A stretch of 38,089 bases of DNA from a virus (taxonomy: Duplodnaviria > Heunggongvirae > Uroviricota > Caudoviricetes), in IMG/VR virus record IMGVR_UViG_2917886563_000005; one strand, 5' to 3'. The translations under genes and the position numbers were made by a program. Of the stretch, positions 2,852 to 38,089 are shown piece by piece; position 1 is the stretch's first letter; each line of letters begins with the position of its first letter. A model generated the notes under the pieces. That model was not told where the DNA came from and did not search any database. It worked only from the letters and a program-made list of their open reading frames with translations.

Positions 2852-5116
2852 TCATTTCGATGAGTTAATTGCCTCAATGATACGCTTCAGGATTTCATTA
2901 TTTCTGCGTTGTAATGCAGCCTCAAGGACTAAGGCCTCTTCATAACGGATCCCATAACGTGAGCCTGCCGGAGTGACCAGAATATCTTCATATTCTGGAT
3001 CTGCCTCTTCTTCATACTCTTCTTCGACTTCTTGAAACTCTGTCTCGATGTACTCTTCTTCTACATCTTCAACTACAGGGACGCTCACGAATGGATTTTG
3101 CGCAAATGGTGAACCATCTTCATTAAGAACAGGTATCATTTCCATTTTTGGAGCCTGATACTCTTCATTCACTACTCGTTTAATCCGTGTTCCGTCTTCC
3201 AGTACCTCATCCTTTAATACCTGACGACTCTCAGTAACCATCACTTGTTTGCTTACAATTCGAGTTTTAGTAACCTGCACAGGAACTGTTGTTATGCGAG
3301 TTTTAGTAACCATTACACCTTCGTTTGTCTGAACCTTAGTATATTGATCATCCCACTCGTCAAAGCAAAAGAATCCAAATCGGTGCACATCAAGCCCATG
3401 ACGTTCAAACGCCTCCTTTGCACGTTGAGCTATTACGCCAAAATGCCAACGAGCTCCGTCTTCTCCTTTTTCTTCTGTTCTGTCAAGATACTGAAATTGA
3501 ACGAAGTCAACCTCTGACCATGCGTCAAGTATTGTATCAGTGATTTCAAGAGGTGCAGTTTTAGCTCGCTCATCTGAAGTAACGGTAAAGGCTGTTTGAG
3601 TGAATCCACCAGACCACACACGACCAGCAGTTCCGACCGTGCTATTACTGTTCTGTGAGTATGGTGTAATAGATGAGTCTACTCTTACAACCCCATCCCC
3701 CTTTGGAGATAGCCTCAAATCAATATCTGTATCGCTTCCAGCAACGCCAACAGCAGGAGCATTAGATGCTGTCTGTGAGCGCATGGCTAGATAATTGGCA
3801 GGAACTGTAGGCCCAGACTCTATGGAAAATATAGGTAACCCAGACGATAATCGTGTAAATACTACGCCATTATCACTAAATAACATTCTGGTTGATCTGG
3901 TTGCATCCTCCAAAACAGAGAGTATTTCAGAAGTTTTCTGATTTGAATTGTTGTACCAAGTCATTGAGTGTCTATTACCAAAAGCAATTGCCACACCTTG
4001 ACCTGTTGATTCTCCGTCGGTTCCTTTAAGGCTATTGCTGCCAAATACGATGCCCTTCAGAAAGCGTGCTGTTTTCCCAGCAGTTTTGTCGTTAGCTATT
4101 ATTCCAATTGCTGCCGATGCAGCATTCAACACTTCTCCAGCTTGGGTTAATTCACCACCTGAGCCTAACCATAATGCGTCAGTCTGACCGTTGGGGAACA
4201 TTGAATTAGGATACAGTTCACGCTCATTCCCCCTGTTTGCTATATCAAGTTCAAGACCGTGACTTGCTCCGATTGTTCCTGCATTTCTTACAGTTGAACC
4301 ATAAAGTGCCCATGCGCTAGACCTAACACCTGATGAATCATCGTTGTAAGCCATCCCGGCTACGGCAAGAGCAGCATTACCCGGTTCACCATCTCCAGTA
4401 TGAGCAGATCCAAAAATTCCTATCCCATCTGGTGGGGCAATCCCAACATTTCTACAGTGTCGCTCTAAATAGAAATAAATATTTCCCCCTAGCCCTGCCA
4501 TCCATGGCACTTGCCTTAACCAATACCCACCAATGAATGTAACATCCATTTCCATTTCCCACGATGTAAGTGGGTCTGAAACAATATCCTGACTTAACAA
4601 ATAAGTGCCAGCAGGAATATAAATTTTGCGCCTTGTCGCATTAGCCGCAAGAAACGCTTCAGTAGAATCAACAACCCCTGTTGGGTCAGCACCTCCGGCA
4701 AAACCACTCCAAGTAACAGGCTTTGCTAATCCTCCGACAAATCCAGCTCCACCAGGCCCCTCCAGTTCAGATCGCAGTTGATCGGGGTCATACTTCAGCA
4801 CATTAGGAAAATAGAACTGCTGCGCACCATATGCATCATATACAGCCATAGAATGGCCTTGCACAGTTACGAACTTGGCAATCTGTCCGTTATATACCGG
4901 GTAACCAGCAGCGTTAATGATGATTGGTTGCGAAACAGGAAAGTGAGAGCCGTCTTCGTTCTCCACATAAACCTGAATCTGGTTTTCAGGATTTACCGGG
5001 TCAGTGTCAATTTTACCGATATAAATTTTGCCATTGGCTACGGCTTTAAAAGAACGCGCCATAGTGAAGAGTTGCGAAGGCATACTCACTACAACATTAG
5101 CTGTAATGTCTGTCAT
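2852..5116 (-). CDS. Tailspike: P22 gp9-like N-terminal head-binding domain, different central receptor-binding domain, C-terminal S74-type intramolecular chaperone and Glu-rich tail
   Basis: N-terminus [11 protein letters not shown]...[11 protein letters not shown]...VLKYDPDQ matches recalled P22 gp9 residues 1-~110; C-terminal SDERAK...WHFGVIAQ is characteristic of the autocleaving chaperone domain. Confidence 0.85.
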
Positions 5117-6471: not shown

Positions 6472-6756
6472 ATGGGCACACCACGATTTACCCCAGAGTT
6501 TAAGGAGGAAGCTGTCCGTCAGGTTACTGAACGGGGCTATTCCGTTGCCGATGTTTCTGAACGCCTCGGCGTATCGGCTCACAGCCTTTATAAGTGGGTC
6601 CGGTCAGTCAGACCGGATAACAGCGAGCATCAGGCGCAGGATTTACTGGATGCGCGGACGGAGATTCTCAGGCTTAAAGCGCAGCTTAAACGTACTGAGG
6701 AAGAACGGGATATTCTGAAAAAGGCAGCGCGGTACTTTGCAAGGGAGCCCGACTGA
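6472..6756 (+). CDS. IS3-family transposase OrfA (HTH, leucine zipper), 94 aa
   Basis: MGTPRFTPEFKEEAVRQV...LKKAARYFA is typical of IS3-family OrfA; AGGAGG RBS. Confidence 0.85.
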   Translation: MGTPRFTPEFKEEAVRQVTERGYSVADVSERLGVSAHSLYKWVRSVRPDNSEHQAQDLLDARTEILRLKAQLKRTEEERDILKKAARYFAREPD

Positions 6757-7607
6757 AGTACCGCTTCATCAACGATCACCGTGAAATCTGGTCGATCGTA
6801 ACAATGTGTCGGGTTCTGAAGGTCGCCCGTGCGGGATTTTACGTCTGGCTTCATCGCCCTGTTTCTGCCGGAGAAAAGGATAATCAGCGGTTGCTGGAGC
6901 TCATCCGCGATGCTTATGCACTGAGCGGCGGAGTCTACGGTTATCGCAGGGTTCACGGCGATCTTCGTGAAATCGGTGAAGTATGCAGCAGAAACCGTGT
7001 TGCCAGAATCATGAAGCGGAACAGGATACAGGCCGTACATGGCTATAAGGTCCCGCGTGGCGTCAGGGGAAGGCCGTCACTGATAGCTCCTAATCGCGTA
7101 CAGCGGGAATTTACGGTGGTAAAACCCAACCAGGTGTGGGTAACTGATATTACCTACATCCGCACCTGGCAGGGTTGGCTGTATCTGGCGGTGGTTATCG
7201 ATCTTTTTGCCCGTAATGTGGTGGGCTGGTCGATGAAACCAACGCTGTCGCGCGAGCTGGCACTGGATGCGCTGCTGATGGCAGTCTGGCGGCGTAAGCC
7301 TGCAGAAAACGTCATAGTGCACAGCGATCAGGGCAGTCAGTATGGCAGTGATGACTGGCAGCGGTTCTGCAGGGCCAACAATCTGGCGCCGAGCATGAGC
7401 CGTCGTGGCAACTGCTGGGATAATGCGGTGGCAGAATCGTTCTTCAGTTCACTGAAAAAAGAGCGCATCAGAAAGCGGATATATAAAACCCGGGACATGG
7501 CCCGGGCGGATATCTTCGATTACATTGAAGTGTTCTACAACCGGACCCGACGCCACAGTCATCTGGGTGGCGTCAGCCCGGAGGCCTTCGAAAAGGCCTC
7601 ACCGTGA
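6717..7607 (+). CDS. IS3-family transposase OrfB (DDE catalytic domain), made as an OrfAB fusion by -1 frameshift near GAAAAAG (6717..6723); first ATG of the OrfB frame is at 6804
   Basis: OrfB frame is open from the slippery run to 7607; conserved ...ITYIRTWQGWLYLAVVIDLF...HSDQGSQY...DNA... DDE-type motifs; stop lies within the right inverted repeat. Confidence 0.8.
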   Translation, partial: EKGSAVLCKGARLKYRFINDHREIWSIVTMCRVLKVARAGFYVWLHRPVSAGEKDNQRLLELIRDAYALSGGVYGYRRVHGDLREIGEVCSRNRVARIMKRNRIQAVHGYKVPRGVRGRPSLIAPNRVQREFTVVKPNQVWVTDITYIRTWQGWLYLAVVIDLFARNVVGWSMKPTLSRELALDALLMAVWRRKPAENVIVHSDQGSQYGSDDWQRFCRANNLAPSMSRRGNCWDNAVAESFFSSLKKERIRKRIYKTRDMARADIFDYIEVFYNRTRRHSHLGGVSPEAFEKASP

Positions 7608-28363: not shown

Positions 28364-29740
28364 TCATACGTCAGCCCCTTGTGCATATCGTCTGCCACGC
28401 GCAGCAGGTGCATTTGATGCTGTGCAAATCTGTCTGGCTTCATCCTGGTCACATGCAACAAAGTGTCCGTTACAGAACCGCTGGTAAACCGTACCAAGCG
28501 AGCCAAAACGGTTTTTCGTCACGATGATTTCAGCAAATGGCGCGGCGCTACTGTTCTCGTCATATACCGCTTCCCGATAGAGCATGATGATTGAGTCTGC
28601 GTCCTGCTCAATGCTTCCTGAATCACGTAAATCTGCGTTTGTCGGGCGTTTGTTTGGTCGCTTCTCAACATCGCGCGAAAGCTGACTTAGGGAGATAACA
28701 GGCGTTTTCAGGTCTTTCGCCATCGCCTTCAGGCTTCCTGAGATGTGAGCAATTGCGAGGTCGTTGCGGTCTGCTTTCGGCTTCTCAATCAGGCCAAGAT
28801 AATCCGCCATGATGAGTGACAGGTTTGGATTTTCCTGTTTGTGCCGCTCTGCGATTGAGCGAATTTCTTCTACCGATAACCGCGAGGCATCGACTACCCA
28901 TACATCCAAATCTGCAAGCTGACTCATGCCGTTAGCAACGCGCGCCCAGCCTTCGTCATCCATCGATGCAGGATTTCGCAGTACGCTAACCGACATCCTC
29001 CCGGCGTTGGCAATGCTTCGCTCTGCAATCTGCAATGCGCTCATTTCCATTGAGAAAATCAATACCCCGCGCCGGACGTCAGAACCAGGAATAACGCGGC
29101 TTGCAACGCCTTCGGCAATCTTCAGCGCCAGTTCGGTTTTCCCCATACCAGGACGAGCAGCGATTATCACCAGGTCTTCCGCGTTCATCCCTCCGGTGAT
29201 GGCATCAAGTTCTTCGATTCCGGTCTTCAGGGTATCTGACTCTTCTCCGTTCCTCAGACGCCTGTCAAGCGTGTCAGTGTAGTCAGTGATGATTTCCCCT
29301 AACCGTACCGGTTTAACCTCGTCACGGGGCTTTCTGATGGCTGAAAGACGCTTTACAAGTTCATCCATCGCCTGACTCGATGCGTCGATGGTTCCGCTCT
29401 GAATTGGTTCACGCATTTCATCCATGATTTCCAGCACCAGACGGCGGTGATAGTTATCCGCGACCATTCCGGCATATCCCTTCAGGTTTGCGGCACTCGG
29501 GCAGTTTTTGCTGGTCATCAGGATTGACGTGAAATGCTCCTCTCCGCACGCCTCGGCAACCATCAGCGCGTCGATTAGGTTTCTGTTTCGCGCCTGCTTG
29601 CGGATAACCTCGAAGGCTTTCCGGTAGAGCGGAATTGAAAACGCTTCCGGCTCCAGCGTTGCCAGAACGTCGCTGGCGGTTGGAGTTAATCCACCAATCA
29701 GCAGGCCACCGATAACGCTCGCTTCGATATCCTGTCTCAT
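28364..29740 (-). CDS. Replicative DNA helicase (DnaB family; P22 gp12-like), 458 aa
   Basis: DnaB N-terminal domain and Walker A ([15 protein letters not shown]), plus RecA-like motifs. Confidence 0.85.
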
Positions 29741-31393: not shown

Positions 31394-32044
31394 ATGAATA
31401 CACAACTGATGGGTGAGCGTATTCGCGCTCGCAGAAAAGAACTCAAAATTAGGCAGGCTGCCCTTGGCAAGATGGTTGGCGTGTCTAATGTTGCTATTTC
31501 CCAATGGGAGCGTTCTGAAACTGAGCCCAATGGCGAAAACCTATTGGCCTTAGCCAAGGCTTTGCAGTGCTCCCCTGATTACTTGTTGAAAGGAGAAGAT
31601 AGTCTTTCAAACATTGCCTATCACAGCAGGCATGATCCAAGAGGTTCGTATCCTCTAATTAGTTGGGTAAGCGCAGGATGTTGGATGGAAGCTGTAGAGC
31701 CATATCATAAGCGTGCAATAGATAACTGGTACGATACAACCGTAGATTGTTCAGAAGATTCGTTTTGGCTGGACGTAAAGGGTGATTCGATGACGGCTCC
31801 AGCCGGTCTCAGCATCCCCGAAGGAATGATAATACTCGTCGATCCTGAAGTAGAACCTCGTAACGGGAAGCTTGTAGTGGCAAAGCTCGAAGGAGAAAAC
31901 GAGGCAACTTTCAAGAAGTTAGTTATTGATGCAGGCAGAAAGTTTCTAAAACCACTTAACCCACAATATCCGATGATTGAGATCAACGGGAACTGCAAAA
32001 TCATCGGTGTAGTTGTCGATGCAAAAATAGCAAACCTTCCATAA
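31394..32044 (+). CDS. c2: C2 repressor (P22-type, LexA-like autocleaving), 216 aa
   Basis: MNTQLMGERIRARRKELKIRQAALGKMVGVSNVAISQWERSETEPNGENLLALAKALQCSPDYLL... matches recalled P22 C2. Confidence 0.9.
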   Translation: MNTQLMGERIRARRKELKIRQAALGKMVGVSNVAISQWERSETEPNGENLLALAKALQCSPDYLLKGEDSLSNIAYHSRHDPRGSYPLISWVSAGCWMEAVEPYHKRAIDNWYDTTVDCSEDSFWLDVKGDSMTAPAGLSIPEGMIILVDPEVEPRNGKLVVAKLEGENEATFKKLVIDAGRKFLKPLNPQYPMIEINGNCKIIGVVVDAKIANLP

Positions 32045-32107: not shown

Positions 32108-32160
32108 ATTTAAGTTTTCTTCAAAACACCCTTGACCATTAATTAAAGAAATCTTAAATT
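32108..32160 (+). promoter_or_regulatory. Left operator/promoter: two clear operators (32108..32125, 32142..32159) and PL (-35 TTGACC 32132..32137, -10 TAAATT 32155..32160)
   Basis: Operators fit nnnnAAGnnnnCTTnnnn; promoter hexamers separated by 17 bp. Confidence 0.6.
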
Positions 32161-32206
32161 TAAGCCATCAGCAGGACGCTGGTAGCCAAACGGAACAGAT
32201 TGGCAG

Positions 32207-32247
32207 GCTCTTTAACATTGATGGGATTGTCCCGCCGAAATGCGGGA
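32207..32247 (+). promoter_or_regulatory. nutL: boxA (GCTCTTTAACA, 32207..32217) and boxB hairpin (32230..32247)
   Basis: boxB ucccgc-cgaaau-gcggga has the same sequence as the nutR boxB. Confidence 0.6.
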
Positions 32248-32361
32248 ACCAAAGAGTAGTTGGCTTTGGGGTGATGTGAAGTGCAGCAGCGCGACAGCAT
32301 CAGGGAGTTAACCTCCCTCCCCCCGTCACGTCACCGCTAAAGTCAATCATCGGAGGTCAAC

Positions 32362-32661
32362 ATGACAGTAGTCATTACATATCTGGCTGACGATAACGCC
32401 AGAAATCGCCGCAGAGCACGCAGACAGGCTCAACGTGAACAGGCAATGAATGAACAGCGACTGGCGCGGAAGATTGCGCTAAAGCTCTCTGGTTGCGTCA
32501 GAGCAGACAAAGCAGCATCACTTGGCAGCCTTCTCTGCAAGAAGGCAGATGAAGTCGAGCGTAAACAGAACCGTATTTACTACCGCAAGCCACGCAGCGA
32601 AATGGGTGTGACTTGTGTTGGTCGCCAGAAAATGAAATTAGGCAGCAAACCACTTATTTGA
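32362..32661 (+). CDS. N-like transcription antiterminator with arginine-rich motif, 99 aa
   Basis: N-terminal ARM DNARNRRRARRQAQREQ; first gene after PL/nutL; GGAGGT RBS; recalled as resembling phage 21 N. Confidence 0.7.
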   Translation: MTVVITYLADDNARNRRRARRQAQREQAMNEQRLARKIALKLSGCVRADKAASLGSLLCKKADEVERKQNRIYYRKPRSEMGVTCVGRQKMKLGSKPLI

Positions 32662-32756: not shown

Positions 32757-32940
32757 TAAAAATCAATGGTGTGGACAATTCAAGCGATGCAATGGATGCA
32801 AGCTGCAATCGGAATGCATGGTTAAGCCTGAAGAAATGTTTCCTGTAATGGAGGATGGGAAATATGTCGATAAATGGGCAATACGAACGACGGCAATGAT
32901 TGCCAGAGAACTTGGTAAACAGAATAACAAGGCTGCCTGA
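32740..32940 (+). CDS. ral: Ral restriction-alleviation protein, 66 aa
   Basis: MTTTIDKNQWCGQFKRCNGCKLQSECMVKPEEMFPVMEDGKYVDKW... matches recalled lambda Ral. Confidence 0.8.
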   Translation: MTTTIDKNQWCGQFKRCNGCKLQSECMVKPEEMFPVMEDGKYVDKWAIRTTAMIARELGKQNNKAA

Positions 32941-33074
32941 TGGTGGCCTTTATTTTTGGCATAAACAACAGAATAAACACTGCACTGTGTATTCATTCCA
33001 ACGAGTGCATACACGGAGCAATGTCGCTCGTAACTAAACAGGAGCCGACTTGTTCTGATTATTGGAAATCTTCT

Positions 33075-33103
33075 TTGCCCTCCAATGTGAGGGCAATTTT
33101 TTT
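33075..33103 (+). terminator. Intrinsic terminator in the early-left operon (tL-like)
   Basis: ttgccctc-caatgt-gagggcaa followed by ttttttt. Confidence 0.6.
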
Positions 33104-33116
33104 GACGGAGTGAACG

Positions 33117-33365
33117 ATGATAAAAACTGATTATCCTGCAGAGCTTAAACAAAAAGTAATAACAGCAATTAAATGCTCTTTTATCTCATGTCGTACAGAT
33201 GAAGAACGATATGTCGTTGAGTGTGCAATTGTCGAGTTTCTCACAGCGATGGAATTTACCGCAGCAGAATCAATAGACGTATTAAAGCAATCGGACGGAA
33301 ATGATATTGAAACAGATGATGTTATTGACCGACTAATAAAATCATTCGAAGAAGAAATAGAGTAG
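33117..33365 (+). CDS. Hypothetical acidic 82-aa protein
   Basis: ORF with GGAG upstream; no recognised domain. Confidence 0.45.
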   Translation: MIKTDYPAELKQKVITAIKCSFISCRTDEERYVVECAIVEFLTAMEFTAAESIDVLKQSDGNDIETDDVIDRLIKSFEEEIE

Positions 33366-33448
33366 CCGCCTGAGCGCGGCTTTACCGCATACCAATAATG
33401 CTTCACGAGAGGCATTTTCGTTATGCAATCAAATATAAGGAGTTACCC

Positions 33449-33824: not shown

Positions 33825-34113
33825 TAAGCGTGAAATATCGCAAATAATCGCAAGTTTTACTGATGAAGATTACGAACGAATCAACAGTGAAGTTGATCGC
33901 CTCTGCAAACGTTGCGACCCAATAAGCGAAATGCTTCGCTCATATAAACCAGATGAACACACTAAGGACGCTATCGACTGGCTGGAAGATGATGACTGTA
34001 ACTATCAGGAAAAAGCCGCTGAATGGTTCTGGGATGCAATAACCGAAAGAGTTAAGGCTGAATATGCCTTCGCAATATTCAAACGCAGACACATTTATGG
34101 AGAAGCAGCATGA
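33802..34113 (+). CDS. Hypothetical 103-aa protein upstream of recT
   Basis: AGGAG RBS; translationally coupled to recT (ATGA overlap). Confidence 0.5.
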   Translation: MMILTLNDKREISQIIASFTDEDYERINSEVDRLCKRCDPISEMLRSYKPDEHTKDAIDWLEDDDCNYQEKAAEWFWDAITERVKAEYAFAIFKRRHIYGEAA

Positions 34114-35012
34114 GCAATATCGTTGAATTCGTTAAACAGCAGGAGCAGTTATTCTGCGGAGCATTGACTGAACAGACGGTGACATGGGCTAAGGAAAGCC
34201 AGTTTGCAATTCAGTATTTCCAGAAAAACGATTACCTGGCTAAAACAGCACTGGCAAACCCAACCAGCGCACAGAACGCCATCATCAATGTTGCGGCGAT
34301 CGGCATCACCTTAAACCCGGCCAGCAAACTTGCTTATCTAGTTCCGCGCGACGGCATGGTTTGCCTTGATATCAGCTATATGGGATTACTTCACCTTGCG
34401 CAATCGACAGGTTCAATTAAGTGGGGGCAATGCAAACTGGTGTACTCAAACGACACCTATGAATCAAATGGCCTTGATTCAGCACCAACCCACAAATACA
34501 ACGCATTTGGTGAGCGAGGCTCTATTGTTGGTGGTTATTGCACGGTTAAAACAGCAGATGGTGACTACCTGACTGAAGAAATGAGTCTGGCAGAAATTAA
34601 AGCAGTGGAAGCAACGAGCAAGGCAAAGAATGGACCGTGGAAAACATTCTGGGAAGAGATGGCGCGTAAAACAATAGTTAAACGCGCCAGCAAATACTGG
34701 CCTAAAGCCCAGCGACTGGATAATGCCATTCACCTGCTTAACGAAGATGAAGGTATGCATCAGGAACCAGTTATGCCGCAGAAATCAGAGGAAGATATCC
34801 ACGAAGATGAACGGAAACGCCAGCAGGAAATAACGGATAAAGCACAACTTCTTTGTGATGAAATGGCCCAGGCTGAAAACATGGATGATTTGAAGCGATA
34901 TTTTGCAGAAGCATATCGCCTGACATCTGGAATGAAATTGCAGCAGAACGTACAAGCCATTTACATAGAATGCAAAGCGAAACTGGAGGTTGCCAGTGAG
35001 CAAACTATATGA
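34110..35012 (+). CDS. recT: RecT-family single-strand annealing protein, 300 aa
   Basis: ...NGPWKTFWEEMARKTIVKRASKYWP... matches the conserved RecT motif. Confidence 0.8.
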   Translation: MSNIVEFVKQQEQLFCGALTEQTVTWAKESQFAIQYFQKNDYLAKTALANPTSAQNAIINVAAIGITLNPASKLAYLVPRDGMVCLDISYMGLLHLAQSTGSIKWGQCKLVYSNDTYESNGLDSAPTHKYNAFGERGSIVGGYCTVKTADGDYLTEEMSLAEIKAVEATSKAKNGPWKTFWEEMARKTIVKRASKYWPKAQRLDNAIHLLNEDEGMHQEPVMPQKSEEDIHEDERKRQQEITDKAQLLCDEMAQAENMDDLKRYFAEAYRLTSGMKLQQNVQAIYIECKAKLEVASEQTI

Positions 35013-35478
35013 AATAGCCAATGAATACGCAAAATTGATGGATTCAGATTTAGAGCCAGAGATGATTGCTGACACAATAGAAGGCATGGAAGGAGAATTT
35101 ACCGATAAAATAGAGCAACTTCTCGCCATTATTAAAAATGAATCTGGTTATGCTGAACGCCTCAAGGACGAGGCAAAGTCACTGAATGAACGAGCCGCAG
35201 TAATTCAAAATAAGATTGACAGCATTATGGCGTATATAGCGTCATCGCTTGAAATGGTTGGCAAGAAAAAGATTCGAGCAGGTATCCACCAGGTAACAAT
35301 CCGCAAACCGTCAGAAACTGTAGAAATCATCGACTCAAGCGCCCTTCCTCAAGAATACGTTGAGTTTGAAACGACAATTAAAGCCGACAAACTGGCAATC
35401 AAACACCAACTAAAAGCAGGAATAAATATCCCCGGCGCTCAACTCAAAGTTGGGAAACCTTCACTTCTTATCAAATAA
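34996..35478 (+). CDS. Hypothetical 160-aa coiled-coil protein downstream of recT; possibly Gp157-like
   Basis: GTG 34996 with GGAGG 6 nt upstream; family assignment is from memory only. Confidence 0.45.
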   Translation: MSKLYEIANEYAKLMDSDLEPEMIADTIEGMEGEFTDKIEQLLAIIKNESGYAERLKDEAKSLNERAAVIQNKIDSIMAYIASSLEMVGKKKIRAGIHQVTIRKPSETVEIIDSSALPQEYVEFETTIKADKLAIKHQLKAGINIPGAQLKVGKPSLLIK

Positions 35479-35489
35479 CGGTATCGCCT

Positions 35490-35804
35490 ATGAAAAAGAC
35501 TCCATGGGAGAAATGGGAAGTCGATTTCTTGCGCGAAGTAGCGGCGACAATGCCAGTTGAAGTTATCGCTGAAAAACTGGAAAGGACTGAAAAAGCAGTA
35601 ATGGCGAAAGCAACAAGGATTGGCGCTGACATTGTTAGCCGACTTCGTGGAAGACGATGGACAAGAGCCGAAGTATCACTTTTCGGTAAGTTCTCCGCAG
35701 AAGAAATAGCAATTGCAACCTGCCGCTCAATTTATTCAGTAAGGGCTATGCGATACAAGCTAAAAAAACTCGATGAAAAAAGAGCAGGCATACAAATAAA
35801 TTAA
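35490..35804 (+). CDS. Hypothetical 104-aa protein with two internal ~40-aa repeats (possible tandem HTH-like modules)
   Basis: Repeats WEKWEVDFLREV...IAEKLERTEKAV and RRWTRAEVSLFGKFSAEEIAIATCRSIYSV seen in translation. Confidence 0.45.
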   Translation: MKKTPWEKWEVDFLREVAATMPVEVIAEKLERTEKAVMAKATRIGADIVSRLRGRRWTRAEVSLFGKFSAEEIAIATCRSIYSVRAMRYKLKKLDEKRAGIQIN

Positions 35805-35820
35805 CATGGAGTAATTAACA

Positions 35821-36102
35821 ATGAAGCTAAACATCGACCTCGGTAAATACGTTATTACTGGAACAAAACACGACCTGATTCTTAATGAAAGAGGAATTAT
35901 CAAAGAAGGTGAGAATGCAGGGAAAGAAACACTAAGCCGTATCGGTTATTACAGCAAGTTTGAGCATCTGGTCAAAGAGTTATGCAACCGTGAAATCCTG
36001 TTATCTCAGGCGCAGACGCTACAGGATATTCAGCAGCATATCGAAACTTTAGGTATGTCACTTAGCATGGCTATTGACCAGTTCGTGGAGAGTAAATCAT
36101 GA
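35821..36102 (+). CDS. Hypothetical 93-aa protein
   Basis: ORF in operon orientation; no recognised domain. Confidence 0.45.
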
Positions 36103-36266
36103 GAGGACTTGCATACAATCCCGGCATTCTTCCAGCAGAAATGATTATTCGCCAACGCGTAAAGCCAATGCCATCGAGAGAGGAATTACTTAAGCGAAAC
36201 TCGTTTCCATCAGTGAATCAAAACAAACATCTGAATGCGATGTGGCGCAAAGGAGGCGACCAGTGA
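36099..36266 (+). CDS. Small 55-aa ORF, ATGA-coupled upstream and GTGA-coupled downstream; not in the ORF track
   Basis: ATG 36099 with GGAGAG upstream. Confidence 0.35.
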
Positions 36267-36775
36267 GCAAGATTGACTATCAGGCACTGCGTGAAGAATT
36301 TCAATACATGCAGGAGCATTACAGCGATCCTGCGGATCGTGAAAAACAGGAACTTTATATTTACGCAGAAACGTTGCTGTATGAACTGGATAAAAGCCAG
36401 CAATACATAAAACGCCGCGACCAGGAGAACGAGGATATTGCGCTAACGGTTGGGAGGCTGCGTGTTGAGCTGGAAGCAGCAAAAAAGCGCATAGCAGAAC
36501 TGGAAGCCGAACCTGTAAGCCAAACTTACAAGTTGCACGAGCTGTCGGGCAGCTCTCCGGTAACTCCGGATGGTTGGATAAGCTGTAGTCAGCGAATGCC
36601 TGATGATGGTCAGCACGTAATTATTTTATGTGATGGTGCATTCGTTCTTTATGCGCAATATCGAGACGGTGAGTTTTTTGATGTCGTCCGCAATGGTGAG
36701 GAGTTCTTCGAAACGCAGAGCCGCAATGTAACCCACTGGATGCCGCTACCAGAACCGCCGCAGGAGGTGAAATGA
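36263..36775 (+). CDS. DUF551-like protein with N-terminal coiled coil, 170 aa (GTG start at 36263)
   Basis: AGGAGG 6 nt upstream of GTG; C-terminal ...[11 protein letters not shown]... typical of DUF551 prophage proteins. Confidence 0.55.
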
Positions 36776-37059
36776 TGGACTCCTTTGCAAAATATACGAT
36801 TATTGACTGGATGGCCTTCCTTCAGGTTTTGCTCATCTGGTTTTATATGGCTTACAGGAGTGGGCAGTGGATTGTCAACGTGGCCTGTAGCAAGGGATGG
36901 CGTTGGTGGAACCGAAAGAATAAAAAAGCACTGGCCTTGGATTCGTTTTACGAAGCATTCAATCTCAACAGTCTTCAGCCTGGTTCTGCCATTGTAGTCA
37001 CCACTCAAAGCGGCATGACAATACAAATTCACAAGCCAAAGGAGGAAGGTCGTGGCTAA
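36772..37059 (+). CDS. Hypothetical 95-aa protein with hydrophobic N-terminal segment
   Basis: ATGA-coupled ORF; Trp/Phe-rich N-terminus. Confidence 0.4.
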   Translation: MMDSFAKYTIIDWMAFLQVLLIWFYMAYRSGQWIVNVACSKGWRWWNRKNKKALALDSFYEAFNLNSLQPGSAIVVTTQSGMTIQIHKPKEEGRG

Positions 37060-37336
37060 CCTGCAACTTGCCGTCAAAGGTGAATACTTCGATGCCATGA
37101 TTCGCGGGGAGAAAACGGAAGAGTATCGCCTGTGTAATGACTACTGGAATAAGCGAATCATGTTCCGGGAGTATGACCGCCTGATTATCACAAAGGGATA
37201 TCCGAAGCGCGACGATTCCAGTCGCAGAATTGATGTTCCGTATGACGGATATGAAGTGAAGACAATCACACATCCACACTTTGGCGATAAACCGGTAAAG
37301 GTGTTCGCTATAAAGGTGAATATCGGCAATGAATAA
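37052..37336 (+). CDS. ASCH/PUA-like small protein, 94 aa
   Basis: KGEYFDAMIRGEKTEEYR motif resembles ASCH-domain phage proteins. Confidence 0.5.
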   Translation: MANLQLAVKGEYFDAMIRGEKTEEYRLCNDYWNKRIMFREYDRLIITKGYPKRDDSSRRIDVPYDGYEVKTITHPHFGDKPVKVFAIKVNIGNE

Positions 37337-37408
37337 TAATCCTCGCACTCGAGGGGATTTCTTTTATCTGAACTCGCTACGGCGGGTTTTGTTTTATGGA
37401 GACAAGAA

Positions 37409-37753
37409 ATGTCAGATTTGGCTATGAAGATTTTGAAATGGCAATCGACTGGCGATGTCGGCATCAGTAGCGCAACTCTTGCCTCAATCGCATGTGGACT
37501 GAAAAAGAATATCTATGGTCATCACTTCGGCGCTCCACATGACGCAGCCGATTTCCGACGATGCGTTGCACTTGTTGAGCAGATTCCAGAAATCAGAGAT
37601 TCATTCGACAAGGTTGCAAAGCGCGTTCCGGCATTCAAAGGCATCCTCAACGAATGGGATTCCCTCGTTGCTCTGTTGAAGTCTGAAATGAAGATACACG
37701 GAAACAAAGCACCAGAGACTTACAGAAGAATTAGCGAACTACGCAAGGACTAA
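37409..37753 (+). CDS. Hypothetical 114-aa protein upstream of xis
   Basis: ORF in operon orientation; no recognised domain. Confidence 0.45.
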   Translation: MSDLAMKILKWQSTGDVGISSATLASIACGLKKNIYGHHFGAPHDAADFRRCVALVEQIPEIRDSFDKVAKRVPAFKGILNEWDSLVALLKSEMKIHGNKAPETYRRISELRKD

Positions 37754-37820
37754 CCATGGAATCACACAGCCTCAAACCCAATGAGGCCTGTTCATTTCTC
37801 AAGATATCCAGACCTACCAT

Positions 37821-37845
37821 CGCCGCATCAATGCGGTTTTTTTAT
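37821..37845 (+). terminator. Short hairpin plus T7 run upstream of the excisionase gene
   Basis: ccgca-tcaa-tgcgg followed by ttttttt. Confidence 0.45.
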
Positions 37846-37888
37846 TGCCTGATTTGCAGGTTCGATTCCCTATTCGGAGATAGCACTC

Positions 37889-38089
37889 ATGCAACATGAA
37901 CTACAGCCTGATTCACTGGTTGATTTGAAATTCATCATGGCTGATACTGGCTTCGGTAAAACCTTCATCTATGACCGTATTAAGTCCGGCGACCTGCCAA
38001 AAGCCAAAGTTATCCACGGGCGAGCAAGATGGTTATATCGTGACCATTGTGAATTCAAAAATAAGCTCTTAAGCCGCGCCGATGGGTAA
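37889..38089 (+). CDS. xis: Excisionase-like DNA-binding protein (AlpA/Xis-type HTH), 66 aa
   Basis: ...FIYDRIKSGDLPKAKVIHGRARWLYRDH... resembles AlpA-type excisionases; GGAGA RBS; last gene before the expected integrase. Confidence 0.6.
   Translation: MQHELQPDSLVDLKFIMADTGFGKTFIYDRIKSGDLPKAKVIHGRARWLYRDHCEFKNKLLSRADG

Follow-up and report, generated by a model that had tools for sequence, protein, structure and literature searches.

A probable P22-like early-left accessory region between the recombination genes and xis of a temperate phage

Seven small, closely packed genes lie between the recombination module and the excisionase gene in the window analyzed here, a 38,089-nt stretch of DNA from a virus of the class Caudoviricetes. 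A preliminary description of the sequence placed them in a region where lambdoid phages accumulate host-takeover and anti-defence genes. What kind of region is this, and do its products act against host defences? The block is very probably the non-essential early-left accessory region, known as 'exo-xis' in phage lambda and as 'ea' in P22, of a P22-like, Lederbergvirus-type temperate phage.

Position of the block in the early-left operon

The block (35490-37753) contains seven ORFs, all on the + strand, as are the other features described below unless stated otherwise. The RecT and Gp157 genes are on its 5' side and a TorI-type xis is on its 3' side. The order on the + strand is cI, a pL-like promoter, nutL, N, cIII, kil, RecT, Gp157, ORF1 to ORF7 and xis. 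The cI repressor gene (31394-32044) is immediately 5' of the pL-like promoter motif (32132-32160). The boxA of nutL, GCTCTTTAACA (32205-32216), and a boxB-like hairpin (approximately 32231-32248) are assigned from the sequence and the textbook consensus, and an N-like gene (32362-32661) is found 3' of nutL. The recombination module, which matches PHROGs 148 and 253, consists of RecT (34110-35012; Pfam RecT, 1.5e-33) and a Sipho_Gp157 or 'Mu Gam-like' protein (34990 or 34996 to 35478; Pfam, 2.7e-36). The TorI/AlpA-type excisionase gene (37889-38089; phrog_66) is 98% identical to genes annotated as torI or hkaC excisionase, and the window ends at its stop codon. The gene order and the pL/N strand, with the pL-like promoter and nutL upstream, bear out the assignment of the seven genes to an early-left accessory block between the recombination module and xis. 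No match to a housekeeping protein was found for any of the seven ORFs.

By comparison with lambda and P22, transcription of the block would start at pL and set in directly upon infection or induction. RNA polymerase modified by N would read through the terminators in the spacer before ORF7 and through the hairpin before xis, and ORF2 to ORF6 would be translationally coupled. The products would be small modulators of various kinds and not the parts of a single machine.

Coding status, start codons and junctions

All seven ORFs of the preliminary description are found on the + strand. ORF1 (35490-35804, 104 aa) is separated by 16 nt from ORF2 (35821-36102, 93 aa), which overlaps ORF3 (36099-36266, 55 aa) by 4 nt in an ATGA. 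ORF3 in turn overlaps ORF4 (36263-36775, 170 aa from GTG 36263, with an earlier GTG at 36242) by 4 nt in a GTGA. The overlap between ORF4 and ORF5 (36775-37059, 94 aa, or 95 aa from 36772) amounts to 4 or 1 nt (ATGA/TGATG), and that between ORF5 and ORF6 (37052-37336, 94 aa, GTG start) to 8 nt (GTGGCTAA). ORF7 (37409-37753, 114 aa) follows after a gap of 72 nt. The tight packing with ATGA and GTGA couplings is therefore real, with overlaps at four of the six internal junctions. A Shine-Dalgarno motif (GGAG or AGGAGG) is present 6-9 nt 5' of the start in six of the seven ORFs, and no recognizable motif was found on inspection of the sequence upstream of ORF1.

Six of the ORFs match a Pfam or PHROG family with E values of 1e-21 to 1e-52, and the best match of ORF1 is at 4.5e-23. 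Variation among homologous DNAs is concentrated at the third codon positions of the seven ORFs, and the pN/pS ratio is 0.06-0.16 for ORF1, 2, 3, 5, 6 and 7 and 0.33-0.43 for ORF4. Because of these family matches and of the third-position substitutions with low pN/pS, the ORFs cannot be attributed to chance, and all seven are real protein-coding genes under purifying selection. It is extremely unlikely that some of the small ORFs, such as the 55-aa ORF3 or those with GTG starts, are not genes, or that a 116-aa antisense ORF over 36998-37348 is the real one. This antisense ORF does match phrog_20945 at 6.7e-60, and ORF4 to ORF7 are overlapped by three antisense ORFs that are longer than 100 aa. 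However, the pN/pS of the phrog_20945 frame is 1.56, with the variation at its first codon position, against 0.06 for ORF6, where 47 of the 67 variable sites fall at the third codon position, and on this ground the antisense ORF is rejected as the real gene. The remaining antisense ORFs over ORF4 to ORF7 had no family matches, while ORF3 has a DUF2737 match at 1.3e-30 and a pN/pS of 0.16. Phrog_20945 is a shadow-ORF artefact, read from the strand opposite the ASCH-like gene ORF6.

The expectation that the 55-aa gene and the GTG-start gene would be overlooked or given wrong starts by a standard gene caller is not borne out by PGAP, which annotates both correctly in a prophage that is 98% identical from ORF1 until two-thirds of the way through ORF4 and about 93% identical over ORF5-ORF6. 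It is true only of a longest-ORF rule and of old records such as that of HK022.

Comparison with the P22 and lambda regions

The 'ea' region of P22 (eaA-eaI, orf56, orf45), found also in HK620-type coliphages, occupies the same site before xis on the pL strand. It likewise lies 3' of recombination and anti-RecBCD genes and is likewise mosaic gene by gene. ORF3 corresponds to orf56, the N-terminus of ORF4 to EaD, and the C-terminus of ORF4 to the DUF551 domain of EaA. The recombination module of P22 is Erf/Abc1/Abc2, whereas here it is RecT/Gp157, and the xis gene here is of the TorI type, with the P22-type xis present only as a 63-nt remnant. No homologues of eaC, eaE, eaF, eaG or eaI were found in the window, and ORF1, ORF2, ORF5, ORF6 and ORF7 had no counterparts among the P22 proteins in blastp searches.

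[quoted passage not shown] Common to both are an Ea22-family gene (ORF4) and the ea8.5-orf55 terminator spacer, but the slot after the spacer is filled by ORF7 here and by orf55 in lambda. Lambda orf60a, orf61 and orf63 have no match in the window by blastp or tblastn, and no counterpart of ea8.5 was found in the block; the queries came from a lambda RefSeq annotation that does not include orf73. By its gene content, the block is of the P22/HK620 type and not of the lambda type. As the orf60a-orf63-orf61 cassette is absent, the functional data on lambda and Stx phages can be transferred only via ORF4.

Mosaicism

Every one of the seven genes has counterparts of 94-100% identity among sequenced phages and prophages. 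Megablast matches to pieces of the block come from 584 phage records and from 4115 of the 5426 E. coli genomes, and the closest overall relatives are the Lederbergvirus phages 683R2, Gally and Kapi1. The genes occur in 30 presence/absence patterns across 80 related viral contigs, and the only full seven-gene match is a contig that is 100% identical. The breaks in blastn homology (35824, 36098, 36247/36270, 36750, 37047/37053, 37411 and 37833-41) coincide with gene boundaries, so that the block is a gene-by-gene mosaic, the modules of which recur, recombined differently, in E. coli and Salmonella phages and prophages that number in the hundreds. The turnover of the block genes by presence and absence is high despite their conserved protein sequences.

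ORF1, a tandem helix-turn-helix protein

The AlphaFold2 model of ORF1 consists of two tandem three-helix bundles, resembling the HTH repeats of sigma-70 region 4 or Myb, and homologues with three repeats exist. The label of an HTH-like protein with an internal repeat, given from the sequence, is thus confirmed. ORF1 (pN/pS 0.15) matches phrog_11492 and also phrog_323, the family that contains P22 Abc1 (1.3e-20 for ORF1, 1.3e-23 for Abc1). Both are HTH proteins of about 100 aa with the repeat pattern W-x2-E ... IA-x2-(L/T)-x-RS-x2-SV, and both genes closely follow recombination genes, abc1 directly after the annealing-protein gene erf and ORF1 after recT and gp157. The two proteins give no pairwise match in blastp, and their hhalign probability is only 23% (pairwise E 9e-4).

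ORF1 is present in 16 of the 80 loci. Gp157 is beside it in 14 of these, and the remaining two end at the edge of the locus. It never occurs alongside Abc2 (0 of 43 loci), and no Abc2 homologue was found anywhere in the window. Thus, unlike P22 Abc1, ORF1 travels with RecT/Gp157 and has no Abc2 partner. For P22 Abc1, their orf116, Silas et al. report a broad counter-defence phenotype: a number of wild E. coli hosts were sensitized to phage by it, and it triggers P4-encoded cell death (bioRxiv 10.1101/2023.04.06.535777, PMC12373910). These reports concern the P22 protein only.

ORF1 is co-inherited with the RecT/Gp157 module. It probably acts together with RecT/Gp157, or else binds DNA as a factor in counter-defence or regulation. 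It is conceivable that in recombination modules of the RecT/Gp157 type ORF1 takes the functional place of Abc1, in which case it would protect or license phage recombination, or disarm a defence, without Abc2.

ORF4, an Ea22/EaD-type protein with a DUF551 domain

ORF4 is a chimera of an Ea22/EaD-type N-terminal coiled-coil region (Ead_Ea22, PF13935; 42.2 bits against a cut-off of 27) and a C-terminal DUF551 domain. With 76.2 bits against a cut-off of 22, the latter confirms the earlier DUF551-like label. The N-terminus is 78% identical to residues 1-82 of P22 EaD and 55% identical to residues 1-81 of lambda Ea22, and the C-terminal domain is 44% identical to the C-terminus of P22 EaA. This architecture is that of the 'Ea22 V2' variant, with a DUF551 C-terminus, described in PMC10834534. 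The start is assigned to GTG 36263 and not to the first GTG at 36242, because AGGAGG is located 6 nt upstream and P22 EaD begins MSNIDKQALREEF. In PMC10834534 and PMC7093339, Ea22-family proteins are described as pro-lysogenic regulators, not as anti-defence factors. DUF551 is also found on MazZ-like dATP/dGTP pyrophosphohydrolases, which are said to counter restriction (PMC10834534). By analogy with other Ea22 variants, ORF4 is expected to be an oligomeric coiled-coil protein that biases the lysis-lysogeny decision towards lysogeny.

ORF2, ORF3 and ORF5

ORF2 belongs to DUF5405 (Pfam, 27.5 bits against a cut-off of 21.6) and matches phrog_154 at 2.8e-32, with a pN/pS of 0.10 and no match to PDB sequences. 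The phrog_154 label, 'replication initiation protein', was not adopted, since the Pfam text on DUF5405 gives no function and notes only its occurrence in phage P2. ORF3, present in 61 of the 80 loci, is a DUF2737 protein (105.4 bits against a gathering threshold of 25) that is 75% identical to P22 orf56.

ORF5 is a DUF4752 protein (Pfam, 1.5e-35; 121.5 bits against a gathering threshold of 27) with a pN/pS of 0.10-0.13 and with homologues confined to Enterobacteriaceae. An AGGAGG is located 7 nt before ATG 36775 and the homologues are 94 aa long, so this start is more likely than 36772. The earlier picture of a hydrophobic 95-aa protein holds for residues 9-27 or so (Kyte-Doolittle 1.65), which form a single, moderately hydrophobic N-terminal helix, but not for the rest of the protein or, more likely than otherwise, for its length. 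ORF5 is possibly a small membrane-anchored protein. Its hydrophobic helix gave the only PADLOC match among the seven ORFs, a weak one to KwaA (E 0.0075, 13.9 bits).

ORF6, a small ASCH-like protein

ORF6 matches phrog_625 at 3.5e-51, and its family comprises 754 representative clusters. The ASCH signature GxKxxExR, as defined in PMC6803910, is present as G19-E-K21-T-E-E24-Y-R26. Across 35 diverse homologues K21 never varies, while the conservation of G19, E24 and R26 is 90% or higher; the residue numbers of the four are identical to those in human EOLA1 (PMC6803910). At 94 aa, ORF6 is near the lower size limit of the ASCH fold, whose known proteins include E. coli YqfB, Zymomonas ZmASCH and human EOLA1. 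The ASCH-like label stands as far as the conserved motif is concerned, and close homologues are annotated 'ASCH domain-containing' by NCBI. It is not carried by the Pfam ASCH profile (PF04266), with which ORF6 scores 14.3 bits (E 0.068), below the gathering threshold of 21.2. Only three of the 35 homologues match that profile, at E values of 0.003 or worse, and a profile of the 35-member family matched no solved ASCH structure among PDB chains. ORF6 is probably a minimal ASCH-type protein, with a likely role in RNA or nucleotide binding or as an N4-acylcytosine amidohydrolase.

The spacer, ORF7 and the xis remnant

The spacer between ORF6 and ORF7 (37337-37408) contains two intrinsic-terminator-like hairpins, each followed by a U-tract (37338-37359, dG -8.1 kcal/mol, z -2.8; 37370-37389, dG -11.0 kcal/mol, z -3.5), and the Shine-Dalgarno motif of ORF7. 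It is the same element as the lambda ea8.5-orf55 spacer (about 90% identical), its second hairpin recurs unchanged as a lambda terminator among the predictions of PMC4195576 (Table 4), and it is homologous in 68 of the 80 loci. These similarities identify the gap as a putative conserved lambda terminator spacer. A 32-codon ORF (37329-37427) was rejected as a gene, since its conservation belongs to the terminator spacer and lambda lacks the ATG.

ORF7 is a member of phrog_1229 and has no Pfam family match. Its structure model is confident and all-helical, with seven helices, and neither model nor sequence has a relative among solved structures. ORF7 could belong to a novel class of early proteins aimed at the host or its defences, or it could be an excision cofactor. 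It is very unlikely that ORF7 is a 'moron', a cargo gene transcribed independently between a promoter and a terminator of its own, which the prophage would express to the advantage of the lysogen and outside the pL operon. Such an arrangement would fit the terminator-like hairpins on both sides (37338-37397 and 37822-37845), the transfer of ORF7 as a unit (37385-37841) that moves next to three different xis types, and its position in a variable slot otherwise filled by a lambda orf55 homologue. However, the 72-nt spacer showed no sigma-70-like promoter and, as a conserved lambda element, precedes pL-operon genes in lambda as well; the Shine-Dalgarno motif and start codon directly follow the U-tract, and the GC content of ORF7 equals that of the neighboring genes.

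Downstream of ORF7 is a non-coding spacer (37756-37845). Its first part (37756-37818) corresponds to the first 63 nt of a P22-type xis, with 90% nucleotide identity to P22 xis, and is also detected by tblastn with residues 1-37 of P22 Xis. A terminator-like hairpin with U7 (37822-37845) is located 3' of this remnant. A 47-codon ORF (37756-37899) is not a gene but the 5' remnant of P22 xis, and its ATG is deleted in HK022 and Gally. Searches of the region with Rfam (E up to 1) and ARAGORN found no RNA family and no tRNA, and the string GGTTCGATTCC at about 37865, considered as a tRNA fragment, was matched by neither.

Is the block an anti-defence island?

According to the reading put forward in the preliminary description, genes of this kind would serve host takeover and anti-defence. 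As a rival explanation, the block would be a dedicated island whose genes are the first to be expressed once the DNA has entered the cell, and most of its seven products would each inhibit a particular immune system of the host (restriction, RecBCD-linked, abortive-infection or CRISPR). This is unlikely, even though the block is part of an early operon and its region has a high turnover of genes, DUF551 occurs on the MazZ-like enzymes mentioned above, and P22 Abc1, which shares phrog_323 with ORF1, sensitized wild E. coli hosts and provokes a P4-encoded cell-death response. None of the seven ORFs matches a characterized anti-defence protein in NCBIfam and PADLOC searches, and the Ea22 family of ORF4 has been reported as pro-lysogenic. 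The link between ORF1 and Abc1 is remote, and support for an anti-defence role of the block is only indirect, by way of this link. The proteins are also highly conserved (pN/pS 0.06-0.16, ORF4 apart). At the protein level, ORF6 is 96-99% identical in the best 80 of 481 viral-contig matches, which is unlike the diversification of proteins in an arms race.

The reading as an exo-xis/ea accessory region with a mixed set of products is preferred. The NCBIfam search returned nothing useful for the seven proteins, a comparison of all seven with PDB chains returned nothing credible, and no activity can be inferred for ORF2, ORF3 and ORF7. There is a small chance that two members, ORF7 and ORF1, still hide new biology. 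None of the seven protein sequences is among the accessory genes screened in the supplements of PMC12373910, where the DUF names occur only in neighborhood tables.

The region type, its mosaic behavior and every gene family have already been catalogued, most of the families without a known function, and many phages and E. coli genomes by the thousand have annotated genes that are nearly identical to these, so that the block carries little weight as a discovery. Its value is the modest one of a curated example, in which two start codons are fixed, phrog_20945 is exposed as an artefact, a widespread unnamed tandem-HTH gene is tied to the RecT/Gp157 module and also, though remotely, to Abc1 of P22, and phrog_1229 is flagged as a small conserved early protein without structural relatives. 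The tandem-HTH gene (ORF1) and the phrog_1229 gene (ORF7) are reasonable picks for anti-defence or lysogeny screens.

Setting of the block in the early-left operon

The seven small ORFs (ORF1 to ORF7) lie on the plus strand within 35490-37753, tightly packed between the recombination module and xis, as in the preliminary description. The surroundings of the block are those of a textbook lambdoid early-left operon. A cI-type repressor gene (31394-32044) is followed by a pL-like promoter (32132-32160), a consensus boxA, GCTCTTTAACA, at 32205-32216 with a boxB-like hairpin after it, an N-like gene (32362-32661), cIII, kil, RecT (34110-35012) and a Sipho_Gp157 or 'Mu Gam-like' protein gene, which ends at 35478 and precedes ORF1. 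A TorI/AlpA-type excisionase gene (xis, 37889-38089) comes after ORF7. The nearest phages to the window are Lederbergvirus (P22-like) coliphages, and its tailspike has the P22 head-binding domain. Two strong terminator-like hairpins on the plus strand (32929-32960 and 33075-33106), with the N-like gene upstream and cIII downstream, are placed like the tL1-type terminators of lambda. They are adjoined by a minus-strand 94-aa ORF (33131-33415) without a PHROG match.

The ORF1-ORF7 block is an example of the accessory region that goes by the name 'exo-xis' in lambda and the Stx phages and by the name 'ea' in P22 (PMC10834534, PMC8614690, PMC4195576). The lambda exo-xis cassette orf60a-orf63-orf61 is absent from the window. 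The preliminary description was right about the location and kind of the block; the function it proposed, host takeover and anti-defence, is unproven. The block is an ordinary region of an already catalogued type, for which the operon context, modular mosaic origin and family assignments are established.

Mosaic composition

A 2.8-kb stretch of this region shares pieces with 584 phage records and with 4115 of 5426 complete E. coli genomes. Coverage of at least 80% of the stretch was found in none of those 584 records and in four of the 5426 genomes searched. Homology with single relatives breaks at gene boundaries (35824, 36098, 36247/36270, 36750, 37047/37053, 37411 and 37833-41). Among the 80 IMG/VR contigs taken as the best 80 of 481 viral-contig matches to ORF6, the nine genes from Gp157 to xis show 30 patterns of presence and absence. 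The full set is found in only one of these best 80, a contig (L016) matching the window at 100% identity and stopping at the window's last base.

Coding status and translation starts

All seven ORFs are real genes. When the window was compared with the homologous DNA of 88 loci, most variable sites fell in third codon positions, and pooled pN/pS was 0.15 for ORF1, 0.10 for ORF2, 0.16 for ORF3, 0.10-0.13 for ORF5, 0.06 for ORF6 and 0.10 for ORF7; the two halves of ORF4 gave 0.33-0.43. Six of the seven have GGAG or AGGAGG 6-9 nt before the start, and the successive junctions measure +16, -4, -4, -4 (or -1), -8 and +72 nt.

The longest mechanical version of ORF4 begins at GTG 36242. GTG 36263 has AGGAGG 6 nt 5' and overlaps the stop codon of ORF3 as GTGA, and the N-terminus read from it is colinear with P22 EaD. 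For ORF5, ATG 36775 (94 aa) fits better than ATG 36772, being supported by a Shine-Dalgarno motif (spacing 7), 94-aa homologues and PGAP. In the E. coli prophage CU37RT-2, which is 98% identical over the ORF3-ORF4 stretch, PGAP annotates both ORF3 and ORF4 correctly, and the earlier suggestion that standard callers would miss or mis-start the 55-aa ORF3 and the GTG-start ORF4 is therefore unsupported. Older records, such as the RefSeq entry of HK022, lack annotation of the ORF3, ORF6 and ORF7 homologues, which are 95-99% identical; in HK022 (NC_002166) these lie at 1502-1657 (96%), 3092-3373 (95%) and 3642-3983 (99%) of the extracted locus, L008.

A 116-aa ORF on the minus strand (36998-37348) matches phrog_20945 (6.7e-60), which would make it a candidate gene. 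Its pN/pS is 1.56, with variation concentrated at its own first codon position, the one that corresponds to third positions in ORF6. By both measures it is a shadow of the ASCH-like ORF6, so phrog_20945 appears to be assembled from mis-called shadow ORFs. This artefact deserves recording.

ORF1 and its possible relation to Abc1

ORF1 (35490-35804) belongs to phrog_11492 (4.5e-23). Its AlphaFold2 model (pLDDT 83.5) shows a pair of three-helix bundles connected by a linker; homologues of 151-153 aa, found in Salmonella, carry a third HTH repeat. Of 16 family members, 10 match Sigma70_r4_2. ORF1 (1.3e-20) and P22 Abc1 (1.3e-23) have phrog_323 in common, and the homologue in phage Gally was annotated as Abc1-like by that phage's authors. 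Direct comparison of ORF1 with P22 Abc1 gave no blastp match and an hhalign probability of 23%, a weak comparison.

ORF1 is present in 16 of the best 80 of 481 ORF6 loci. Gp157 stands alongside in 14 of these 16, and the other two loci end just upstream of ORF1. ORF1 and a P22-type Abc2 occur together in none of 43 loci within the same best 80. Genetically, therefore, ORF1 is part of the RecT/Gp157 module and not of the shuffling part of the block. Silas et al. report that, in wild E. coli, P22 abc1 is broadly phage-sensitising (a counter-defence phenotype) and that it triggers cell death via a P4 satellite. These phenotypes are the sole experimental hook for an anti-defence reading of the block, and an indirect one.

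ORF2 to ORF6

ORF2 (35821-36102) matches DUF5405 (27.5 bits, above the cut-off) and phrog_154 (2.8e-32). ORF3 (36099-36266) matches DUF2737 (1.3e-30) and is P22 orf56 at 75% identity. No informative relatives of ORF2 or ORF3 were found. ORF4 (36263-36775) matches Ead_Ea22 (1.6e-10) and DUF551 (3.8e-21). Residues 1-82 match P22 EaD (78%) and lambda Ea22 (55%), and residues 94-166 the DUF551 domain with which P22 EaA ends (44%). The architecture is therefore that of Ea22 variant V2, the term of Donaldson and colleagues for the form with a DUF551 C-terminal domain (PMC10834534). ORF5 (36775-37059) belongs to DUF4752 (1.5e-35), a family restricted to Enterobacteriaceae; it has a single moderately hydrophobic helix at the N-terminus and is polar elsewhere.

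ORF6 (37052-37336; phrog_625, 3.5e-51) belongs to a large family of 754 clusters at 50% identity. Its Pfam ASCH match is sub-threshold, and only 3 of 35 diverse family members match that profile. The ASCH hallmark GxKxxExR is present (G19, K21, E24 and R26) and conserved family-wide, with the same residue numbers as reported for EOLA1 (PMC6803910). On this motif ORF6 can be called ASCH-like with moderate confidence.

ORF7 and its flanking spacers

ORF7 (37409-37753; phrog_1229, 7.8e-52) has a narrow family of 59 clusters, of which those with names come from Escherichia and Cronobacter. A confident model (pLDDT 92.6, pTM 0.86) shows seven helices, with two of the five models below pLDDT 60.

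The 72 nt that separate ORF6 from ORF7 (37337-37408) are not a loose join. They share about 90% identity with the ea8.5-orf55 spacer of lambda (29282-29365), and HK022, 683R2 and Gally keep them, as do 68 of the best 80 of 481 viral loci. This conserved spacer contains two terminator-like hairpins with a U-tract behind each (dG -8.1 and -11.0 kcal/mol; z -2.8 and -3.5), the second of which is probably lambda tL3. A lambda terminator in the predictions of Bloch et al. (PMC4195576, Table 4) is identical to this second hairpin. CU37RT-2 has a different stem in place of the first hairpin, at an unchanged position, which favours a structural role. On the other side of ORF7, the stretch 37756-37818 corresponds to the 5'-terminal 63 nt of a P22-type xis (90% nucleotide identity); a hairpin and U7 terminator-like site comes next, at 37822-37845. 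The ATG of this remnant, which opens a 47-codon ORF in the window, is deleted in HK022 and Gally with the segment itself kept, so the segment is a conserved non-coding spacer. The unit 37385-37841 (ORF7 and the xis remnant) adjoins three different xis types. With terminator-like hairpins on both sides, ORF7 is thus bracketed by terminators, as a moron might be, but no promoter-like site was found 5' of ORF7. ORF7 is read instead as a pL-operon gene that would require N-mediated read-through.

Many database relatives of ORF7 are chimeras (P0015, P0017, P0027, P0032, P0047 and P0059), in which the ORF7 part is joined to PF04447 (a dATP/dGTP pyrophosphohydrolase), ERF, Ea22 or Kil. These could be intragenic recombination junctions or read-through gene calls in draft assemblies.

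Possible expression and roles

By analogy with lambda and P22, pL would transcribe the block at once on infection or induction. The internal terminators would be read through N-dependently, so that ORF7 and xis would be expressed in the antiterminated mode only, and the overlaps may couple the translation of ORF2 to ORF6. From family data, ORF4 might tilt development to lysogeny like other Ea22 variants; ORF1 is possibly a DNA-binding protein that works with the recombination module or as a counter-defence or regulatory factor; and the substrate that ORF6 might bind or process is RNA or a modified cytosine nucleoside. Less probably, a new host-directed activity might reside in ORF7, whose fold is an orphan, or in the Abc1-like, RecT/Gp157-tied ORF1.

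Ends of the window

No tyrosine integrase was found among the ORFs examined, which cover part of the window. The TorI-type xis closes the window, its stop codon ending on the last base (38089). Relatives carry either a host gene (dsdC) or sucrose genes directly behind xis. KplE1/HK620-type prophages share this arrangement and have int at the opposite end. At the other end of the window are a PEBP-family gene (1-477), a 581-aa GT2 glycosyltransferase (1041-2786), a P22-type tailspike with an endosialidase-chaperone domain (2852-5116, minus strand) and an IS3-family insertion sequence (6472-7607).
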